From assembly GCA_965112155.1 (NCBI GenBank), contig OZ218100.1: DNA of 64,000 bases; one strand, written 5' to 3'. Under the pieces are notes generated by a model. It had not been told where the DNA came from. It made no database searches and saw nothing but the letters and a program-made list of their open reading frames with translations. The position numbers and the translations under genes were made by a program. Position 1 is the first letter of the stretch. Each line of letters begins with the position of its first letter. The stretch comes from Podarcis liolepis. Taxonomy: Eukaryota. Positions 3,278 through 64,000 of this stretch are shown one piece after another.

Positions 3278-3522
3278 CTAGAAAATTTCAGAAGCTTTTA
3301 CATCAGAGAAGTCATCATTTAAAATCTATAAAGCTGAAAGTCTATAAGCACCCACTTATTCTCTCAGAGTGAGAATTGGAGCAGGGTGCGGGGAGGATAA
3401 AGGCTTAAAAATAAATGATCAGGATACAGAATTAAACGACTATAACAATAAAAAAATGAGAAGTAATATGAAATAGTGCTTAAAATGGTAAAATAAAATC
3501 AACAGAAAATAAATGGAAATAC

Positions 3523-8290: not shown

Positions 8291-8452
8291 CTTTTTGTTG
8301 AGAGTTTTCCATCTTGTGTTAACATCCTCAAGATCACGCTCAAGGTTATCAGTACTAGCATTTTTAGCAGCACTCTGAATAAGGCCTTGACCCAACCAAT
8401 TTACCTCCTGTTGCTTAACCTGCAGTGGTTCAATCTTTTCCTTCTCGAATAC
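8291..8452 (-). CDS. DST: Dystonin exon ([11 protein letters not shown]...WKTLNKK), 162 nt
   Basis: [14 protein letters not shown]; pyrimidine tract then AAG acceptor; phase 0-0. Confidence 0.95.
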
Positions 8453-8969
8453 CTTCAGATCAAAAGGAAAAGAAAGAAAGAAAGGCAAAGGCACATTTAG
8501 ATTATTAAGTCTGGAACATGCTGAGCATAAGTGATGACCAGAGCAGGTATCAGTAGTAAAATCACACAGCATGTCATGAACATAGTGTGGAAAGACAGTA
8601 TTTAGCTACAGAGTGTACATGTCAAATTGCTCTTAATGTTGTAAACACAAAACAACTCAGAGTAAATTATATACACATTAACCCAAACAGGAGTTAAGAA
8701 ACTGCTATTACATAAAAAAACAAACACTGTATTTAAAAGGAAGAGACAAACATAGTGCTCCATACTGAATCTTCCTAATATAGATGCTCAAACAATATTT
8801 AAAGCATAAGGTACACGTTGTGGACACCTATGTCAAACTGAAGAGGATGACATATTGTGGATAGTAATTGTTCAGATATCTGTTCACAATAGCCCATTCT
8901 TCTTGGGGCCATGCAACTCTGTGCAAACAGTTATCCTTTGCATATGGCCAGCAGACACAAGTAGCCCAT

Positions 8970-9195
8970 AAATACATAAGAGCCCTGATGGAGCATGCCA
9001 AATGCCCATCTAGACCAACATATTGTTCTCACAGTGGCCAACCAGATGCCTGTGGGAAGCTTGAAAGCAGGACTTGAGTGCAAAAAGGACTTGTGACTCT
9101 GGCGTACAGAAGCATACTTCTTCCAACAGAGAGAGCATAGCCATCATAGCTAGCAGCCATTGACAGCTCTATCTTCAATCAATTTGTCTAATGCT
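8970..9195 (-). mobile_element. CR1 LINE 3'-end fragment
   Basis: Resembles squamate CR1 3' UTR (cccatctagaccaac...cagtggccaaccagatgcc); recalled similarity. Confidence 0.55.
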
Positions 9196-12006
9196 TAAAG
9201 TTTGGTGAGGAAATTAATCAATCATCTGAATATGCTCAGCATATGTTTCTGTGGTGCATAATGATTTGCATAGTCATTTAAAAATGATGCAGTGCTCTTA
9301 ATTCTAATGGGAGGAGCTGGTATTGGACAGTGTGGCTCCTACAGACCAAGTGAGCAGTGAGATGCTGGGCACGTGCAGGAAGGGACCGTCCCCAGTCCTA
9401 AGTGCACAGTGGAGAAATGCAAGCGCTATCCAACGATTTGGGGGCCACTATAGCATGGTGAGCCTGGACCTCAGGAATGGCCTGGGAGAATGAGCTGATC
9501 ATATGACTAAGGAACTACACCAGCATTCACCTTCTAGATAAGACTAGTAATGGTTATATTGTTTTAGAAGATACTGAAAAACAGTGGGGACCATGTCCCT
9601 TTATTTCCCAGGTGGTCTTCATTGGCAAGAAATTCAAGCATGCTTCACATAATGATATCATAATGCAGGCTAACTCAACCCACCAACCTAAGTGATGTTC
9701 ATTTGAGAACTTGCAAAGGCTAGTGACAGAAAATATTCCACAGGCATCAAATGCTGTTGGTGGGTTATGAACCCAGGCTATACAAACTGTGGTCTTAAAG
9801 CTTCTTACCTTTTAAGTACTCCCTCCCCTCCCCCCCCAAAAAAAATCTTCTTTTTCTTCTTCTACTGCTACTACAGACACTGTCCCTTGGCAGCAATTTC
9901 ACTATAGTCAGCAAAATATTGTGAAGCCATTGTACTGCAATACTGTACTGAACTTTATTATTATAGCTTTACTAGCAAATATGGCTCACATCCTGAATAT
10001 CTATTTCAGCTGCCACTAGTAACATCATTCCCTTAATACAAGCAATGTTATGGGGATACTACAAGTGTACCTCAGTATGGCTAAAGTTATTCCTCAGAAC
10101 CTAGACACTCAAGTAGCCCAGGACACCCAAATTCCTAGAACAGTCTGAAAATAAAGCATGTTTATAGTTGATGTACCTCAATATCAGCCCTAAGTAATTT
10201 TTATGCTCACATAATTGAAAACAAAAATGATAAGAAGCCTCCCCAAGATGGGATACATAAATTGTACACCAAAATGGCCAAGCACAACACTAGTAGGAAA
10301 AAAGAAACTTGCTATGCACATTGTGTAAGAAACCCAGATTTTCTAGGATAGTCTGCAAACAGCACATTTTCACACCTAGGTTTACGTCATAACAGCAGCC
10401 AGCACTTCAACACACAGCAAGCACATTTGACACACAGGACAGTGTGTGACCCATCTCTCCTCGAGGCCTTAAATCCACACGAATAACCAGGAGAAGGGGG
10501 TTTTGCAGAGGCAGTGAGGAACTTAAGTCCGAACATGGACAGCTCACACACATTTGAGACTACATGCAATAATCCTCAGACACAGTGGTGTGTTACATAG
10601 TAGCAACCAGGAACACACAAACACACACACACGTATAATGCTGTTTTTTCTGTACTCAATAGCACTACCTATTTGCAGGACATTGTGGGATTTGTTAAGG
10701 GGGGGGGGCAATATAAAGCAGAGTTCTGAGGAACCAAGTAGTTGAAAACAGCAAACAGGTCTTACCTTTCCCACAAAATAATATATAATATGGGCAAGTT
10801 CTCTTTACTTTAGAGAAATAAACAAGGGCTGGGATGCAAAAGCTAATTTACACATACCCAAGTGTTAGCTCAGTAGTATCTTTGGCAATCAAACAGGCAG
10901 GCACATGTACACACCCCAGGTTCCATAAACTACTTTTGAAATTCCCCTCTCTTTCAAAAGAAGCTTCCTGTGTTTGAGGTTGCTGTGTGAGAAACACAAG
11001 TCCTGCTCCAGTTTAGGCCCATGGAACTAGTAACGCAGTCCTTCAATCCAACTCTCCTCTATTTCAGATGTTCATATATTTTTAAGACAATTCCATAGCA
11101 ATCCAAACCGAGTTGTTCCCCTTGATTTGTTGTTTAGATACACATACCCACTCAAAAAAGTAGGAATTGAGGCTAGAGTTTGCCAGAACAGCTTAGCAAC
11201 AAGTCCTAAAATAACTCAAGACACAACCAGATCAGAGTGACCAAAAACAAAAAGAACAAAATTAAATTAAAGACTTCACAAGCTCCCCATGCTTATTACA
11301 AAGCTGTTTTCTACTTCCTTACTTCATTCACCGCTCAGTAAATGTTACAAGATCTCTTGTAAAAAATCCCCTACAACTTTAGGACTACTTTTTGGCATGA
11401 AGATGCAAGGAAATAATTTCAGTACGTGCAACAAGCCTTTAATCTGTGTACTTTGGAAACCGCAGCAATCTGAGCATCGTTGTGTATACCTTTATGATGA
11501 ACAGTGCAATCCTATACTTGTCAGCTCAGAAGAAGCATGCCCATTGGGTTTAATGGGCCTTACTCCCATGAAAGTGTGTACAGTATATGGCTGCAGCTGA
11601 AATCTGGTTAAATCTGAATAGGGAAGGCCTATCTGCCCTTGAATGGCATTGGCTGCTTGAAACATAATTTGAGGGGAGGGATGGAGGGGGTGCTGAAGAT
11701 CAATGCCCAGTGGAAGCATTCCAAATAAAGGGTAACAGGCACCATCTGGACAATAAATAGCCATGCAACCAAACAGCTGGAAGCAATCAACCCTGTCACA
11801 AACTGCCCTTAATCAATTTACTGAAGTGACCATCTCGCCAATTTCTGCCTTCTAATAACTTGTTGGGCAAATGATTCTAAAGGAGCTCTTTGGGTAGATT
11901 AGCAAAATCTAAACATAAGCATTCATGATGCAATTACAGAAGAAAAAATAAATAAAAAATAACCCACCCTGCAGCATGAAAAGAATGCATTTAAGTTTGG
12001 AATTAC

Positions 12007-13299
12007 CTTATAAGACAACATGCCATTGCACACTGTATCCAAGGTTTGTTCTATTTGCATGCCTGTAGTCCAAAAGCTGAATTCAGCGCTGATTGGATTT
12101 GCTTTTTGACAGCATGTGGTATTATTAGCCTCTAAAGCCTGACAGGACAATTCTATTGCACTTGTATGGGCCATATTAATTTCCTCAGTTTCATGCAAAA
12201 TCACATATTTTACTAAGTCCGTATCACTAGCATGTAAAGCTGCATCATCATCATCATCATAAATATCTATATCCTGAGTTGCAATATCCAGGAGGTCCTT
12301 TTCAATCATCCTGTCTTGGGTGTCTAATGGCTCATTAACTTCAGCGCTGTTCCTCACTTCCTCTTTGTCTAAAGTGAAATCATGTTCCCTCTCACCATCC
12401 TGAAGCCATGCTGGATGTGCTAAGAGGTCTTCTTTCAAATATGTCAGTGGACTGCAATGTCCATCTCCTTCCCCTTGGTTGCCCTCATAGTTCCAGAAAG
12501 ATTCTTGCTCTATATGTGAAGCATTCTGCAATTTTACTCGACAGTGTCCACTGGTAGGAGCACTTCTGGAGGTAAGCAATGAAATTTGATGTTCACTACT
12601 AGAAATGGTAGGAGAAAATGATCCAAATTTACCTACAAACTGATTATCGTCTATGGAAGATATGCTCCTAAATTGAGTTTGTTCCCCTTCTAGCACATCT
12701 TGTTTTTCTTCTCTTTCTGCTGGAGGACTGCACAGACCAGAGTCATCTTCTTCGGAAGTTAGAGAACTAGTCCCACATTTGACCTGGCCTGTTGCTGCTA
12801 AGTCGGACACATCAACAGTCCCAGCAAGTGAGCACTCACTTTTATTTGCATAGTCTGCAAAATTTGGTGGGACAAGCATCCTCCAGGATCTCCTATGTTC
12901 TTTCTTTTCTGTGTGATACTTTGCTTTGGGCAGGCCAGCTGTTCGAATGATGTCACTGTTCAGCTTAAGGGCATCAAAGATCATTTTTTCATCTAGCTTA
13001 TTAGCTTCCCGTCCTCTGAGTTCAAAGACACTAGAGGAGGAGAGGGCACCATTGGAGCACAATGTACTAAGGTCCAGTGTTCTATGACTATACGGCAAAG
13101 TCCGATCTGAGAAATGCCTGGAGGAGAGGCTGCCTTTAGAACCTGAGTCAATCTGTTCATTCAGCCGCACTGTGTCATAGATTGACCTCTGGGGAACATA
13201 ACAGTCCTCAATATTTATATCCTCTTCTTCTTCATCACCTTTTCCTACACAAGGAGGATTCTGGCGTAAACAGTCTGGCCTGCTCAGCGGCTTCCCCAT
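12007..13299 (-). CDS. KIAA0754-like coding exon nested in a DST intron; putative alternative first coding exon of a short dystonin isoform (431 codons)
   Basis: ORF 11923..13326; first ATG at 13299 in GAAATGG context with in-frame TAA at 13342-13344 upstream; starts MGKPLSRPDCLRQNP...IEDCYVPQRSIYDT, recalled as near-identical to the KIAA0754 N-terminus; phase-0 donor AAG|GTAATT after 12007. Confidence 0.85.
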
Positions 13300-13349
13300 T
13301 TCTGCAGGAATTAACAGATCTAGCACTGCTGCTAGGCTATCTTATTGGA

Positions 13350-14900
13350 GACATGCAACACACATAAAGTAAAAATTAAAATAAAGTAATAGAAAAGCAG
13401 TTTTTAAAAAGTACAGTAAACTTGCCCTCAGCAGAAAGATGCTTACATACTAAAACACAGGAAATAATTTATGAGGCGGTTAAGGTCGTAATCAGTGCAT
13501 CTGTGTAAGTTTACCTGGCTGTGATTTAAAACATTTCTCTCCCTGCCCCTAAAATATAAAGTGCTTGAGCTTAAGGGGGTGGGTGGGGAGAGGGGAAACA
13601 AAAAAAACCCCACACCTTTTAATATTTTAAAATACTAACTCAATGCACAAAGACACCAACAAAATGTACAAACCCCCAAACCCCAGGAAAATCTTTAAGT
13701 GGCTCAAAAGACTCAGAACTTCCCACATAGCATTCCATTTCAATTTTTAGGTCAAAATGTGTGTCTTAAATCTCCAGATTAAGTCTTCAAAATGAATCAG
13801 CATTATCGCAGGCAGCACGCTATATTCAGGAGGTGACAGATTAACTGTAATCCATTTAAATGGCTTGCAGAATTCCATCTCCTTTATAAATAAGCCATGT
13901 TGTGGACGCTTTTGAAGAAAAACAAACCAGAAGAGCTGTGGACTGTGGAGACCAAGGCACAGAGAAAGGCTTCAGGAAAAACAAACGTACATCCAGAGTT
14001 GTAATAATAATAATAAAAGAAGAAGCTTTCCCCCTTTTTTGGCAGCAGCTATAAATAACCTCGATTCCAAAGGCAGTTTATTCCTTGCTTCCTCAAAGCT
14101 TCTCTGTGGCGCGTTCAGAAGTTCCATGGGAAACACAACAGTTTTCTGAGGAGCCAGACCAATGAAATAATAATAATACAAAAAAGCAACGGAAGGGAAT
14201 TAGTAGGAAAAGAAACTTTTCCCCCAGTTTCACTCGCAGAACACATTCCTTGAAAGTTGTTGTCCTGTTTTAAGGCAACACAGCAGGAAACTAAAGCATT
14301 TCTTTCTCCACTCCGGCACAAAGGCACAACAGATTCACATTCTGTTTAAATTCAGCAGGACTTTTTTTTTTTTTTTTGCATAAACGGTGGCTAAAAGAGC
14401 GTGGTCACTGTTTTCATCTCCGTCTTGAAGCGCAGCTGTAGCGAAGAAGGCATTAAAAAGAGCTCACAACAATAAACGCTCACATGTCCTGCCCAGCGCA
14501 GCTGATAAGCTTTCCGGCTCTCCCTGGTTTCTTATGGTCTGACAGGCATCCCTCCCAATAGTGAGCTTAAAAGAAACGCCCTTTGCTATTCTTTAGGCAA
14601 CATCTGCTCCTATCGCATTCGTTCCCTGAGTATTATTCCAACCGAGCATTAGGAGGTGCCTGACCTCTTAGCTCTTCCCCCTTACGCTTCCTGCCCCACA
14701 TGACTTTACTTAGCCATCTTTCACTTTTACTGTTTGTCTTGTCTCTGAACGCGGCTGAGCCTTTTCAGGGGGAGGTGCACAAAGGAGCAAGTTCCTGTCT
14801 GCAGCACTCCTGCATCTCGGAGTCTGTGCTCTCTAATTCTGGAGGAAAAGAGGGTGGGTGGGTGGTGGCTCACAAGCAGAATGGAAAAACCGGTGCTAAT
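13350..14900 (-). promoter_or_regulatory. Putative internal promoter/5'UTR for the KIAA0754-like exon
   Basis: No recognisable transposon here; local CpG enrichment ~14380-14760; MEF2-type YTA(A/T)4TAR at 13884-13893 and 14049-14058; CAGCTG E-boxes at 14433-14438 and 14499-14504. Motif-level inference only. Confidence 0.5.
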
Positions 14901-19444: not shown

Positions 19445-20035
19445 AATCAGAGTGTCATGCTAGGTCATGGGAGAACAAGCTTCAAATCCCCACTTGGTCA
19501 TGAAGCTCACTGGGTGACCTTGGGCTCGTCACCAATTCTCAGCCTAGCCTACAGGACTGTTGTGAGGTTAATGGAGAAGGGGGAAGCTTTATGCTGCCTT
19601 GATCTCTTTGGAGGCAAGGTGGGATATAAAGGTAAAGGTAAAGGTACCCCTGCCCGTACGGGCCAGTCTTGACAGACTCTAGGGTTGTGCGCTCATCTCA
19701 CTCTAGAGGCCAGGAGGCAGCGCTGTCCGCAGACACTTCCGGGTCACGTGGCCAGCGTGACGAAGCTGCTCTGGCGAACCGGCAACAGAGCAGCACACGG
19801 AAACGCCGTTTACCTTCCTGCTATAAAGCGGTACCTATTTATCCACTTGCACTTAAGGGTGCTTTCAAACTGCTAGGTGGGCAGGAGCTGGGACCGAACG
19901 ACGGGAGCTCACCCCACCGCGGGGATTCGAACCGCCGACCATGCGATCGGTAAGTCCTAGGCGCTGAGGTTTAACCCACAGCGCCACCCGCATCCCAAGG
20001 TGGGATATACAATGTAATAAATAATAAATAAATAT
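19445..20035 (+). mobile_element. Older tRNA-derived (MIR/CORE-like) squamate SINE interrupted by a Sauria SINE; related copies at ~47170-47370 and ~57400-57560
   Basis: ttcaaatcccc...gaagctcactgggtgaccttgggc...ttgtgagg motifs and an (AAT/AAAT)n tail at ~20015-20035. Confidence 0.6.
19629..19996 (-). mobile_element. Full-length Sauria SINE
   Basis: Same architecture as 1945-2298; 13-bp TSD AAGGTGGGATATA at 19616-19628 and 19997-20009. Confidence 0.92.
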
Positions 20036-20189
20036 ACAGTACCCCAATACACACACACGTATTGAAACACCAGTTCTCCAAGTCAGAAGTTCCCAAAACA
20101 CAATCAGACACAGAAAGAGCTTGTTGCAGTCTAAACCAAAAAAGTGCAGCGTTTACTTGTGACATTAAGAAAAAATTGTGAAAACTGTC

Positions 20190-21070
20190 AGAGAGAAAGA
20201 AGGCTTAACTTAACACAAACTGGATTTATTTTAATTAAATCCATAGTTTTATTTTTAAAAGAACATGTAAAAACACAAGCTCTAAGACCCTTAACACCTT
20301 CTGAAAAATTATTAAGCACAATGGGTAGAGCGGAGAAAGGATTAGTTTCTAAACTGTACTCTACATTGCTCAATGTAACTTATGGATCTATGCCACCCCT
20401 TAAAAAGATATGGGAACTGGATATTGGCACACAAATTATTCCCAAGGACTGGAATTAAACTTGGGCATCATGACCCTAAAAATCTGTTTCTGGTTTCCTT
20501 AGGGAAAACTTAAAAATGTTACACAGATGGTGTTGCAAGCCTTTGCAAATGTCAAAAATATTTTATTCTGTATCACCTGACTGTTAGAGGGTTTGCAATA
20601 AACTTGGCACATATTATCATTTATAGCGGGAATGTCAGTTGGTGCAAAATTTAATTTAATTTTGAGAGAAATGATAAATATCACTAAAGAAAATATTGTT
20701 TGTTGTCCAAAATTAATGTTACTGAATATTTTTTTATGATACCAAAGTAAATATATATTGTCAAAAGAACTAGTCTTATATATGATATTGACAGCATGAA
20801 TAGTAATTGCAACTCAATAGAAAACAGCCCAAATCTTACACTTTTGATATGATTTGGCATTGCTTTATGACATATACAGCGGTACCATAATTTTCAAGAC
20901 AACCTTTGTCACAAGCCTGGCAAATCTGCAACTATAGATGATCTGGTAAAGTTGAAAGTCTTTACTCTGTTATTTTAACTCATTCTACGTGCCTGTTTTA
21001 TAGTTTTGTTTTTCATCTTTTATTTTTTGTCTCTTGTTCTGTTTCATATACATTATAAAATGAAGTAATA
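20190..21070 (+). mobile_element. Degenerate L1-clade LINE fragment (ORF2 C-terminus and 3'UTR)
   Basis: Translated remnants KGLVSKLYSTLL, LKKIWELDIG...KDW and LTA*IVIATQ*K; T-rich 3'UTR. Confidence 0.6.
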
Positions 21071-23806: not shown

Positions 23807-25281
23807 CTTAAATACGTTCAGCTGCTGATTTATCGTCTCAATTTCCATTCCAACAGAACCCTGGGACTCTTCATGCTCTTCAACTTCCCCAAGCAGTTTA
23901 GAAAACCCCTTTAGTTTACTGTAGAACTCTTCAACGCGGCTAATAGTCCCTTCAATCTGTTCATCTCTGGCTTTTGCTCTGTCTAGCAACTTGTTGCACT
24001 GCTTATTTAAAGCCTCCAAGTCCCGTTTTATACCTGCAAGATCTGGAGAAGCTTCAGCTTCATTTGCGAGCATCATTTTGCAGGTATTATTTGCATTTTC
24101 ATTACTGGTTATGAGTTCCTCCAACTTTTTCAGGAAAGTTTTTATATCCTTTCGCTGTGACTGCAGTGTGACAAGATCCCTACCCACGGAATCCATACTG
24201 TCCAATTCATCGTCGAACTCTGCAAACTGAGAAAACATCTCTCGAATGCTATTTTGGAAATGGCCAATTCCCTGGAGTTTAGTCTCCAGGAATGAACATT
24301 TATCTTCAACCTGCTGACTGATGGTGTTGAATTCTTCTTCTAATGTTTCTGCCTGCAACAAGAGGTCAGAGACACCTGATGAATCTGAAGCATCTGCCAC
24401 CAGTTCTTGGGCAAGCTTTTTTGTAAGGTCCACTTGAGCCTTCATGGCCTGGAGTGTTTTCTGCTGAGCCTGCATAATCGTCAAGTGTTTGTTACTGTAA
24501 GTCTGGGGTTTGAGAGAATCGTGTGTTTCCAGCTGCTCTCTGGCATTCTTCAGCTGCTCTTCAACATCCTTTGATGACTCTTGAAACTCTTTCAGTCTCT
24601 GAGACATCTTTTCCAGACCATCTCTCTTAGCATGCAGTTGTTCTGTGACTATATCCATGTTCTGGATCAGCAGTGTCTTCTCCTCTTCAATAATGTCTTT
24701 GTCTGTCTGACAGGCACTGAGTAATGTTTCAGCTGCATTACTTAATAGCTCCACCAACCCTTGGTGTTTGTCTAGGTCCTTCTGCCAGCTCTTCACCTGA
24801 GCGATGGAATTCTCTAGCCGAGCAGGATCTATGCTCATTTCTATTTGAGAGATATTGCTTTGGCATTTCGCTATCCAGGGTTGTAGGTTTTCTACATGCT
24901 CTCTGTATCTAAGGGCTTTTTCCAAACAATCATTTAATTTATCTTGCCTTTCTTTAACTTGCTTGTTCATTTCATCCCAGTTACCTCTGAGCAAGTTCAG
25001 TTGGGCCTGCAGCTCGGCCTTCTCCGCACCCTGAGTCTTCTGGAGTAAACTTTCACCTTCTGCAATGATTTTTTCATAAGAGCCAGTCTGGTCAGACAAG
25101 GCAGCCTTGAACTCTTTCTGATCATCAATTAATGTCCACAGAGACTCCAGCTTGGTAGAGATGGGGCAAGGCTGATTCTGTTCTTCCTTCTTTTTGTCCA
25201 ACCAGGCCTGAAAGTCCTTAGACATTTGCTGGAACTGATGAGAACTAACGTAAGTTGACTGAAGTTGCTCAATGTGATTGC
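23807..25281 (-). CDS. DST: Dystonin large spectrin-repeat exon (GNHIEQLQS...QQLNVFK), 1475 nt
   Basis: ORF 23780..25369; [33 protein letters not shown]; phase 1-0; donor AAG|GTAAGA. Confidence 0.96.
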
Positions 25282-58670: not shown

Positions 58671-61600
58671 CATGCTCTTTGAATCAGGTCTTGGTCCAGA
58701 GTCCTCTGTTTCCAAGGTTTCAGAGAAGCTTTTTGGTTGCTGGTATGGCTTCTCGGGCTGAGGGTATCCTTTCGAACCAAGAGCCTTACTGAATGCTTCA
58801 GTACTCTCTCCAGCAGTTTCTGCTTTTAATCCTGATGAACTTGTAGTTTCTCTTGAGATGGGAAAGGCATGGTCATACTGAGAAGCGTTTTTCTCCTGCT
58901 CTCTTTCTGTCTGGGCCTTCATGTCCCTTGTCTCACGGGTGCTCTCATTTCTTTGACTGCAGTGGTCTTGTTTCAGTATATCGAGGAGGAGATCAGGACT
59001 TCTATTATCAAGCCAAATAGGTGGGTTAGAATTAGGTTCGTTTGCATGTATGCACAACGAAGCAGCCATTGAGGCACTTCTAGTATCCTCACTTCTATGT
59101 TGGACAGCAGATTTGGCAGGGTCCTCATTTTCCCAGTGTGTGCTATCAACCATTTTAAGTAAATTTTGCATTAAAGCTTTTGTGCCAATATAACTTAAAG
59201 GTTCCTCTTCCTGCTTGCAGTAAACATCTTTTATATTTCCTTTAAGTATTTTTGTTAAGCTTTCAGGTAATGTGGGAGGCACTTCAGGAAAAACAACTTC
59301 CTGATCACTGACTGGGGCAGAATTAGAAAGCATCACATCTTTTAGTGATTGCTGCATTTTTATCTGGATGCCATTTTGAGAGTAAGTAGGCTCATGGTCT
59401 AGAATGTCATCTTCCGTAGGCTTCCCCAAACTACTATTTTGAGTGACCTCTGCTTCATGTGCTTTCTGCTCATAGCTATTCTGGCTTTCATCTCTGGTGT
59501 CTAAAGTACTAGAAGAAGATCCAATTACACATGTATCTTCTCCAGAAGCTGTTTCATCAGCCTTGCTCCCTACTTTTCCAATAGCTTCAACACGCTCCAT
59601 ATTGTTGAAATCACATTTGTAGCTTTCATTATGAGACACCTTGGAATGAGCACTAGCCTCTTTACTAACTTTATCTCTTGTAGGTTCTGATACAACTGAT
59701 GCAGGAAACAGCTGCTGTTTGGGGTGCAATTCTTTTAGGTGCTGTTTTCCCTCGCAGTTTCCACTTCCTGATACCACTAGTTCCTCTCTATTCTCTTCAC
59801 TGTCTCTTTCACCTTCCTTTAGGTAAGATGAACCATTCTCTCTCATTGCTAAGATATCCTTGGCCATTATATCTTTCACACTTTGCTTTAAATAAGTAGA
59901 GAGGTCAAACCCCTCTACATAGTGCACTGATTCATCTTTAGCAATGTCATTGGAGTCTGTAACCAATGTGGGCTTATTTGAAGTTTGAGCAATACTTATT
60001 TTTTCATCATATGAGGCAGTAATTTCATAACCATTTTTAATAACTGATGAATAAGGCTCCCTAAGGCTTCCACTTGATTCCCGGATATGATCTTCCTTCA
60101 GAATGCACACTCCATTTTTATATTGTTTCAGTGCACCAATTTCTACTTGACTATGTGGCACACTGGTAGATGCTTGTTTTCCATTATCTACTTCTTGTCT
60201 TTTCTCACAATTCAAACATGGCATTGATATATCATCAAGAATTTTAGCTTCCCTGTGTTCAGCATGTAAGTTTCTTTGAGAAGGTATATCAGACTTGGCA
60301 CTAATATTTTCTGTTCCAATTGCGTCTTCTGATGTTGCACCATTGCTTATGCTTAATTGGGAGGTTTGACTGTTCTGTAACGCAAGGTTGTCTTGCATGA
60401 AAGGGTCAGAAGCCTGTTCTGTTTCTTGCTGGCTTCCCTCTTTACTTTTACATGGTAGGTCCTGAATGTTTTCTTTAACAACATCAGCTAAATTTTGATA
60501 TTCATCAGCACTGTAGCTTTCAGGGCACCGTAAACCATTGTTTCCTGTTGCCTCTGAAAGTGCAGACACCTGGACCCCAATGTTTTTATCATGGCACTGA
60601 GAGTAATGCATTTCCAATACCTCTTCATCTTCATAATCTGTCTCTTCGTAAGTATCATAATCAAAATCCACATAATCATAACCTTCAAAATCATCCCCAC
60701 TGTCACTATCACCATTATCGCTACTGCCATTCTCATCACTATTGCCACTGCCATCATCATCACTGTCATTATCCATACATATGCTTTCATGTTCACTCTC
60801 AGAGTCATCTTCTTTTGTTTTAATGCCCTTGTGCTCACCCCTTTGCATTTTAGCTTCATCCAACTTTTCCAGGCAGCTGTCAATCTCTTTACTTTCTTCC
60901 CTTTCTTTTTTCTGACCATTATTTTCTATATCTCTACTGCTTTCTGCTTTGTCTTCTAGAATTGTGCCTAGTAGCCTTGCATTGAATGCTGCCATATTTA
61001 TAATTTCAAGTGTATCAGAGTCACTCGTTTCACTAAAGCACAGAATGCATTCTTCTTCCTTACTTAGGTTGCCCATGGAAGATTTTGCTTTTTCTTGCAA
61101 CTCGTCTGCTACTCCATTGATGGCTACTGCACTGTGGACGAGCTCTGGAGTAGCATCTTCTTTAACAACAGAGGATTCACCCTTGTTTATTCTGCCTGAG
61201 CTATAAACTGTACCACTGATATGATCAATTTGCGGAGCATCACAGGCTTCACTGCGATCTTTATGTTGAGTTGGATCACAAGGATCTTCTGACTGAGTAC
61301 TATGTTCTCTTTTATGCAACAGCTCAGATTGCTTGCTGTTATTGCCTTCCAGAACTAGCGAGCCACATTCAAATGTTGACTTGCTGTCATTCACAGGTGG
61401 TTCATCATGCTTCATACTAGCACTGACTTCCAGAGGTGATGTGGACTCACTATCAGTATTGTTTTTAATGGATGATCCATCAAGAGTGTCAGTAGTGACT
61501 TCTACTGGGAGCCCAGCATTTGTATCAATGGAATCCTTGAGTGGACATCCAGCATGAGTAATAGCACCGTTTCTCTGAATTGGTCCAATATATTTATCTA

Positions 61601-64000
61601 CAGTATGATATTCCAACAGTGCAATGCCATCAGAACTGGTATGGTCATCAAGCAAAGATACACTACATATATTAGCCTTATCTATGGGTTGTTCTCCATC
61701 ACTGATATTCATCTGATTTTCTACAGGTTGCCCACTTTCAGTCTGTTCTTCCTGTAATAATCCATGGATCAAATTTACAGTGTCTTCCAGGAGGGAATCA
61801 CCATTAGAAGTATTTTCTAGGACTGACATGCTATAGTTATTGGTGCAATCTTCCAGTAACTGACTGTCATGTGTATGCACTCTAGTTTCCAATGGTAATG
61901 CATCTTGTATGCTGGTGTAGTTTTCCAATAGACAGCCAGCAAATTTATTAGCATGGTCTTCCAATTGTGAATTGCCACAGCTATCTGTAATGTCTTCTCG
62001 TGGTGGCCTATCATTCATATGAAGACATGCACCATGCATTATGGAGTGGTCTTCTAATGGCAACTTGCCATTCCTATCATCATTGTTATGCAATATTGGG
62101 GTGACATTCGTTTCCGCTTGCAATACTCCACTCTCATTACAAGTCTCTAATTCTTTCTTAGTGCGTTCATTTAAACATTTTTGGTCAGGTTCTATACTAG
62201 TGTATAAACTATCCTGAAAGTCATCTTTTACCTCATCTTTCACCTCATTTTTCTTCATTAGCATAATGCCTTCTTCAATCTGCAAAACCTGAGGCATGCA
62301 TTTTTGCAGGCTGTTGTCCATGAGATGTGAAACGTTAGTGCTTGCTTGAGCTTTCTCATCTTTCTTAATAGCTGAAGAATAATTTGCATCCAAAACACTA
62401 CTGAAGATGCCTGGGGAGTCGTTTTCACTCCCCTTAATGTTCTCCCCCTCTACTATGCAAATGTTATCTTCATTTACTATTGGAGGAAGGTGTCCTTGTG
62501 AACAGTTTGAAACAGATGTTTTCATTTCAGCATTTTCAGCGTTTGCTTGGTCAGTTAAATTTTCATACACTTCCACTGGCATTTGTTCTGGAAGTTTCAG
62601 TAAACTTCCAAGTGCATTTTCTTTTTCAAGATTTTGACCTGGATTGATTTCCTTTCCAGATCTATTTGTGACACATTCTGACTGCTCTGAAGCACGAGCC
62701 ACAATATGAAAACCATTTCTCCCTGAGACTATGTCCTTCTGGTGATCTTTACAAAATGCCTCCCTCTTATTGCTGCTGGATATATTTTGAATACTTGTAT
62801 CTTGTTCTGAAACATTGCTAGTGATATCACTAAACATTGCCCCTTTGGGCTGTTGCTCAATATGTTGTGCTTTTGTGTTTAAACACAATTGCCCCTCAGT
62901 CTCATTTGTATTATTTTCAGAACGACTGCAACCCATTAACAGGCTGACTGTTTCATTTAAGTCACCACAATGCAACAAAAGCCTCTGTCCGGTGTTCGCA
63001 TCCATACAACTATTTATCATTAGGTAAGACATGAATAGCTTTTGAGTTTGTTCCGAGTGGCAAGGTATGGGCTCACTGGTGTCAGAAGTGTTTACATCCT
63101 TTCCATCAGCATGTTGGTTGGATGCCTGGAGTTCACAAGACGAGAGCCATCTTGCCGCTTTTTTCAAAGGCAATGGTATATCTTCCACATTAGGCATTTC
63201 ATCAGGTAGGGTAACACTATTCAAAATTGATGAAGTGTTGCTTTCTATGACTCCCTGCTGGGCTGCATCATCCAGGCTGATCACTTCACAAGTTTCTGGA
63301 ATATAGAGTGCTGCTATTTTTTGCCGCCCCTTTAGAATTTTGCAGGCCTGCTCATTAGTGATCATGCCTTGATGCAAAGATGTAGATACAGGAAATATTT
63401 CCCCACTATGTGGCCAGATGAGTCCAATGAAGCCTCGTTGTGCCTGTAGTACCAGCAAGGCACTACTAGAAGAGATCAGGTTGCACTGCACAGCTTCATC
63501 TACAGACAAACGTTTTGATGAATTTTGACACAGGATCCCACCTGTCTGAAGCTGATGAGTCAAAATAGCACAAGCAGCATCCTGGTCAATAACCCCTTCT
63601 CTCATTGCTTCTTCAACAGTCATTCTGTGTCCTGTATCAGGATGAATTATGCCGCCAGAAAGCAGCTGGGCACCTAATAGCCTGAACATGGTCTCCTTCT
63701 CTATGAGTCCTTCATGAGCTGCTCTCAAAATAGTTATCTTCCTTCCACATTTTAGTGTTATTTTGCCTCTTTCTTGAGGGGTCACAGGCAAGAGCCTCAA
63801 GCCTGTTTCTCTATGTACTACAGTTCTTTCAAGCAATTCCTCAAGGGTTATCTTCTCTGCAGTGTTGGGGTCAATAAGGTCTTTGCTCATGTCACGTCTT
63901 TCCAGGAGTTTAGTGTATAATGCTGCAGAGATCAGATTCTTCTGAAAAGCTCTGTGCAAAGTCAGCTGTTCTCCCGTGGCTGGTATCATTAGGTGTCCTC
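58671..64000 (-). CDS. DST: Dystonin giant central exon (BPAG1b-type: plakin repeat domain then long disordered region); 5' part lies beyond the window
   Basis: ORF 58641..63989 (1782 aa) with plakin repeat motifs ([40 protein letters not shown]); donor ATG|GTGAGT after 58671, phase 0. Confidence 0.93.

Follow-up and report, generated by a model that had tools for sequence, protein, structure and literature searches.

The 64,000-nucleotide window of Podarcis liolepis DNA analysed here (assembly GCA_965112155.1, contig OZ218100.1) covers part of a spectraplakin gene on its minus strand. The frames flanking the feature of interest are spectrin-repeat exons according to Pfam, and a turtle dystonin model aligns to the minus strand exon by exon, in 35 pieces (tblastn), with matches of about 73-98% and one HSP of 64%. 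The EF-hand and GAR exons were located by tblastn on the same strand, downstream, 43-52 kb beyond the left edge of the window. A second copy of the N-terminal module described below is present in the same genome on contig C7, 67% identical and upstream of the matching MACF1 exon. The exon-by-exon alignment together with this separate MACF1 copy identifies the gene in the window as dystonin (DST), and the exon under study as a paralogue, not an orthologue, of the MACF1 KIAA0754 exon. The nearest named matches of its protein are from Elgaria (80%) and Pogona (72%).

The exon lies inside a DST intron, where MGKPLSRPDCLRQNPPC opens a coding part of 431 codons (13299-12007, minus strand) with a phase-0 GT donor after 12007. 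On its 5' side, the previous spectrin-repeat exon is part of an open frame at 25378-23807 and has a phase-0 donor at 23807; on its 3' side follows the next spectrin-repeat exon (8452-8291, phase 0), which is common to short and long isoforms. Further upstream, a frame that stays open for at least 1666 codons (59000-63998, minus strand) is, judged by eye, likely the large plakin-repeat exon of DST-b. Spectrin exons and this large DST-b-like exon thus precede the nested start, which sits within the rod, and a product beginning here lacks the actin-binding and plakin domains of a full-length crosslinking spectraplakin.

The frame opened by the ATG at 13299-13297 comprises 458 codons, and an in-frame stop is found 14 codons upstream of it. 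Translation of the first 20 codons (13299-13240; MGKPLSRPDCLRQNPPCVGK) confirmed the N-terminus M-G-K-P-L-S-R reported in the first-pass annotation, with Gly2, Ser6, a basic residue (Arg) at position 7, Cys10 (13270-13272) and Cys17 (13249-13251); residues 2-20 carry a net charge of +3. Residues 2-12 (13264-13296) form the tryptic peptide GKPLSRPDCLR. The remainder of the 431-codon part is acidic and mostly predicted to be disordered, and its AlphaFold model is of low confidence (mean pLDDT 45.8). Three short stretches are set apart from this background. Residues 30-51 (13147-13212; IEDCYVPQRSIYDTVRLNEQID), including Cys33, Tyr34 and Tyr41, are invariant at most columns of a 24-sequence alignment, have a weak predicted helix at residues 43-51 and likely constitute a short binding motif. 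Even the fish copies that diverge most retain Y-[VI]-PQRSIY-[DE]-T in this block, and its two tyrosines could be phosphorylation sites. Residues 102-113 (12961-12996; LDEKMIFDALKL) are predicted to be helical and are the sole stretch with a pLDDT of about 70, while the RRSW motif at residues 136-139 (12883-12894) is invariant in the same alignment. A Pfam search of the exon, block 30-51 included, gave no family match, and a search of the ESM Atlas with residues 1-60 gave no usable one. A frame-preserving length variant of 9 nt was seen at 12242, among the Asp-repeat codons, in sequencing run X5.

The splicing of the exon was followed in 4 of 24 listed runs, two available as contigs and two as raw reads, which were aligned to positions 8400-12650. 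The RNA status of the contig runs is presumed; the run search listed none of the runs containing the exon as RNA on record. The joint 12007/8452, with GT-AG ends, is present in the contigs of both contig runs (X1 and X5, from studies P1 and P2) at depths of 17.5 and 12.2, and the intron has no depth except at repeats; one of these, at 9024-9060, is an interspersed repeat that draws many unrelated reads. The nested exon is therefore spliced in frame to spectrin repeats. In raw run X22, four reads connect the previous DST exon with the one starting at 8452 and represent the long form. The short-form joint is not listed in either raw-read run, where the depth on the exon is only 0.16-1.5; the few reads that fall there are oriented as expected for RNA from the minus strand.

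The first-pass annotation had regarded the ATG as a true start in a first exon, rather than as part of a cassette exon, and had taken the acylation motif as support for this, an argument that is circular on its own. Other evidence leads to much the same place. The ATG is the first in its frame, a stop lies upstream, and splicing from the previous exon, whose donor is in phase 0, to any of the 68 AGs within 1200 nt upstream would not leave the frame open, which excludes an in-frame cassette over this distance. Gly2 accordingly follows a true initiator Met, as in substrates of N-myristoyltransferase (NMT). What these data support is a first coding exon, and the transcript start upstream of it is a candidate only. 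A putative leader and promoter region can be placed, with approximate limits, at 13300-14900 (minus strand) from the extent of the contigs and a raised CpG content. The X1 and X5 contigs carry 1880 and 1582 nt, respectively, 5' of 12650 and would reach about 14530 and 14230 if unspliced. Judged from contig behaviour, X1, which continues without a break for about 1.2 kb past the ATG, looks like a leader rather than a short cassette. The CpG observed/expected ratio is 0.58-0.63 at 14001-14750, a mild enrichment over the 0.24 of the window. A separate CpG-rich interspersed repeat at 19500-20250 is probably a SINE rather than a promoter. The stretch 13300-14530 holds 21 ATGs (23 expected by chance), which argue against efficient translation from a contiguous 1.2-kb leader, so that the translated leader is probably shorter or spliced.

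Conservation of the exon was assessed in 240 listed homologues (the best 120 of 216 and the best 120 of 195 matches). Residues 1-11, and with them the Gly2, Ser6 and Cys10 whose conservation the acylation proposal called for, are invariant in all 240, and identity to the window protein drops to about 0.2 per column past residue 220. This invariance extends over all 11 residues, beyond the needs of NMT, and is thus not by itself diagnostic of acylation. At this Met begin 200 of the 240 homologues; the other 40 are all gene calls on Logan/ENA contigs with variable N-terminal extensions. These extensions, seen at the protein level, were considered as upstream starts and set aside as likely GTG/TTG start calls, because the same positions are V or G in relatives. 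Five NCBI gene models (P0259, P0260, P0263, P0264 and P0268) depart from this start and have the module in an internal position or with another beginning. A larger set of 289 motif-bearing sequences includes cluster members and is thus not one of independent sequences; within it, Arg occupies position 7 in 277 sequences and Lys in 12, and Cys10 is present in all 289. A second Cys, at position 17-20, is likewise common to all 289. The exon therefore has the conserved Cys near a myristoylated Gly that characterises dually acylated N-termini. Divergent fish copies have gained Cys at positions 9-16 and lost Cys33, a pattern of substitution that seems to fit acylation better than a fixed metal site. 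Models joined to the spectrin exons account for 18 of the 289, and three of these extend to GAR. A divergent teleost copy (P0265, P0269, P0272, P0274 and P0275; si:ch73-305o9.3 in salmonids) has extra N-terminal Cys and models without a spectrin join, and may be an acylated gene that stands alone. When 1.84 billion representatives were searched, 50 matches were returned, two of them apparently by chance; all named matches looked up were vertebrate, and no invertebrate homologue came up, which falls short of proving absence. The matches include a hagfish model with the module in the same intron, joined to the same downstream exon, and among the human sequences the cDNA protein Q6ZP91 has a DST-type start. 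On sequence comparison, the exon is conserved from hagfish to humans.

The MACF1 counterpart is known from isoforms 6 and 7 (KIAA0754; UniProt O94854, 3514 aa, PE=2 as listed, join at 1406). It is a paralogous exon in the same intron, its residues 1-12 are identical to those of the DST exon, and it is joined to the matching spectrin exon both in human MACF1 and in the paralogue of this genome. It differs in lying at a separate locus (contig C7), in its length of about 1,100-1,400 codons against 431 in DST, and in having a clear CpG island where the DST copy shows mild CpG enrichment only. In this genome, the MACF1 exon (C7:60158016 onward) has a 1120-codon frame with a likely phase-0 donor at nt 3318; the CpG island spans 60156016-60158015, and a second CpG-rich stretch (60169016-60170015) lies just before the next exon. 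In the 40 kb surrounding the MACF1 paralogue, nothing matches the previous DST exon significantly, and the claim of a shared intron therefore rests on the downstream exon. The regions upstream of the DST and MACF1 copies have no meaningful DNA similarity. Within 17 codons, the two paralogues show eight synonymous or conservative codon differences, which indicates constraint at the protein level.

The N-terminus had been proposed to fit the NMT consensus, and does so with two departures. The PROSITE-type N-myristoylation pattern bars Lys at residue 3, and the exon N-terminus fails it on this residue. The pattern is not defining, since Lys3 is also found in the NMT substrates ARF6 (MGKVLSK) and TMEM106B (MGKSLSH), both enriched, and in NCS1 (PMC4200515). 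For Lys3 substrates, GKXXSX with a hydrophobic residue 5 has been given as a deduced motif (10.1101/2021.06.22.449375), and G-K-P-L-S-R conforms to it. Pro4 is the second departure; proline at this position was proposed in the same preprint to disfavour myristoylation, and a start of the form MG[NQASCG]P does not occur in one substrate table. With Lys3 and Pro4, both unfavourable by published rules, the motif is an atypical one. The favourable residue at position 7 is Lys (found in 12 of the 289), where this exon has Arg; the identical human peptide was nonetheless detected in myristoylated form, as described below. Lys3 also bears on the G2A mutant suggested as a control. G2A peptides with Lys3 can become myristoylated on the lysine (10.1101/2021.06.22.449375), which may make the mutant a leaky control, and labelling left unchanged by G2A alone would not refute acylation. 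The motif M-G-x-x-x-S-[KR] within 20 open codons occurs at 2 of the 2581 ATGs on both strands of the window, and this one alone also has at least two Cys; over 224 kb, 5 of 9202 ATGs pass the same filter, one of them with at least two Cys. As the filter was set after the motif had been seen, conservation is the stronger test.

Direct chemical evidence comes from a proteomic data set of human cells, in which n[210.1984]GKPLSRPDC[676.4887]LR is listed for O94854 (PMC13386470, supplementary file 2, row 301; 2026). The two masses correspond to myristoyl at the N-terminus and to C18:0-DTB at Cys10. The doubly modified peptide was recorded in all three Alk-18 replicates from SH-SY5Y cells at 1% FDR, with MS/MS required in at least two of three, and the dual modification is absent with Alk-14, Alk-16 and Alk-18:1 (PMC13386470). 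The site labels in this row are swapped, but the modified sequence is clear; the main text makes no mention of MACF1. The lipid evidence consists of one peptide from one study with one probe, assigned by database mapping to MACF1 O94854. The peptide is identical in DST and MACF1 and is contained in the human DST-type cDNA protein P0177; it thus supports the chemistry for both genes and proves the expression of neither alone. Of the palmitoylation proposed for the two cysteines, this study shows S-acylation of Cys10 on the human peptide, with a C18:0 probe and not C16:0 as the lipid. For Cys17, neither a spanning peptide nor acylation was found in the supplements searched, and it stays a candidate second site. 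The peptide was not found in the supplements of PMC4200515, PMC10696250, PMC7048800 and PMC5498535, where older databases may have lacked this N-terminus, and no unique peptide was found among the rows listed in the supplement of PMC12955691.

These observations are probably best explained by a short dystonin isoform, of which the nested exon, joined to the rear DST spectrin exons, would be the first coding exon. Its N-terminus is likely myristoylated at Gly2 and S-acylated at Cys10, and its predicted EF-hand/GAR tail would attach microtubules to the membrane so reached. The transcript would arise from an internal promoter on the 5' side of 13299, and splicing would run on to the GAR exons, giving a protein of about 2,500 residues (431 from the nested exon and about 2,100 from the rest, the latter by analogy with human MACF1 isoform 6, O94854, of 3514 aa with its join at 1406) without an actin-binding or plakin domain. 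NMT would attach myristate to Gly2, while Cys10, and probably Cys17 as well, would be reversibly modified with a long-chain acyl group by a ZDHHC enzyme; this would trap this end of the protein in the bilayer. The disordered acidic spacer and the spectrin rod would set the GAR domain at a distance from the membrane, at which it could bind microtubules, and the conserved blocks 30-51, 102-113 and 136-139 may bind partners that choose the membrane.

The same N-terminus could serve other ends. The acylated isoform may act mainly as a membrane scaffold or regulator, which recruits rod partners such as CAMSAP and dynactin to Golgi or endosomes, or competes with full-length dystonin for microtubules, and bears no load as a tether. 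The retained rod contains reported MACF1/DST partners (CAMSAP3, ELMO and p150Glued; 10.1101/122010), the lipid site is followed by three conserved short motifs, and S-acylation is reversible. However, the GAR domain is encoded downstream, an alternative end was not found, and the roles of scaffold and tether do not exclude one another; a mainly scaffolding function is considered rather unlikely. A more pronounced departure would be a product that ends at the exon itself. Read-through of the donor keeps the frame open to a stop at 11923 (12006-11923), which would yield a stand-alone, disordered, lipid-anchored protein of 458 residues resembling UniProt MACF1 isoform 7, listed as stand-alone in mouse, with the GAR join as a minor form. 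The database entries look favourable to this product, as 271 of the 289 motif sequences are stand-alone without a spectrin join, and the acylated peptide is compatible with both the spliced and the stand-alone form. Yet in the X1 and X5 contigs the exon stops at its donor and continues into the next exon, and the intron side of the donor is uncovered, in assemblies that tend to lose rare variants. The read-through tails of different species are unrelated to one another, and both paralogues and hagfish share the phase-0 donor and its acceptor. A stand-alone main product thus appears improbable.

Least credible, and in our view very improbable, is that the DST exon is a cassette or poison exon, or that its N-terminus is a non-acylated protein-binding surface, with the detected peptide derived from MACF1 only. 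In its favour are a CAG two bases ahead of the ATG, the atypical Lys3 and Pro4, and a peptide that does not distinguish the two genes. Against this stand the lack of any open in-frame join from the previous exon, the unbranched sequence upstream of the ATG in the X1 contig, the identity between DST and MACF1 of residues 2-12, which the enzyme reads, and the protein-level constraint evident from the codon differences between the paralogues.

The nested exon is thus a real and deeply conserved feature, the chemistry first proposed for it is largely borne out, and a membrane-to-microtubule tether is a plausible function. In the usual description, it is through actin that spectraplakins reach the cortex. 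An isoform held by lipids and consisting of just the rear rod and GAR would, if confirmed, provide an actin-independent and acylation-regulated route for holding microtubules at membranes. More tentatively, one DST and one MACF1 product may form a class of short spectraplakins older than the hagfish split, in which two lipids take the place of the actin-binding domain as an anchor and reversible S-acylation switches the link between membrane and microtubule on and off. Knockouts at the 5' end and truncating alleles upstream would leave such isoforms intact, but disease variants of the GAR domain would be present in them; lesions upstream of the intron would spare the short isoform and those downstream would hit it. 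C-terminal truncations of DST and missense variants in the MACF1 GAR domain cause severe neurological disease. Antibodies, siRNAs and peptides from the C-terminal part would likewise be unable to separate short from long isoforms.

Parts of this arrangement have precedents. A figure legend in one review mentions an extra exon conserved between dystonin and MACF1, possibly with its own isoform or alternative start (10.1101/122010), which we take to be the nested exon; a functional study of this exon or of its acylation was not found in the literature searched, which included few subscription journals, and the peptide may be listed in supplements beyond it. Among spectraplakins, the type-3 N-terminus of dystonin-a3/BPAG1a3 is a known alternative start that has a myristoylation motif and may be palmitoylated (PMC3352950, 10.1101/122010). 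That start is encoded by another exon at the 5' end of the gene, and its product retains CH2, the plakin domain and the entire rod. The nested start lies deep in the rod, is followed by a spectrin exon instead of CH2, and drops CH2, the plakin domain and the front rod. Myristate on a C-terminal rod-plus-GAR piece has also been described for MACF1, in which a caspase-made fragment is myristoylated at Gly5087 (PMC4200515); by eye, the cut lies 192 residues before the join of the exon. This fragment differs in arising by proteolysis during apoptosis and in carrying one lipid. The matching DST stretch, 192 residues before 23807, reads DASD-S and not D-G, so that the caspase route to myristoylation looks specific to MACF1. 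Dually modified peptides have been recorded for YES1, GNAI3 and raftlin (PMC10696250). Like Src-family kinases, G-alpha-i and eNOS, the DST N-terminus would combine a Gly2 myristate with a nearby acylated Cys, but its Cys10 and Cys17 lie farther out and its Pro4 is unusual. Dually acylated N-termini usually have their Cys at positions 3-6, and eNOS, with Cys15 and Cys26, is a precedent for a more distal arrangement.
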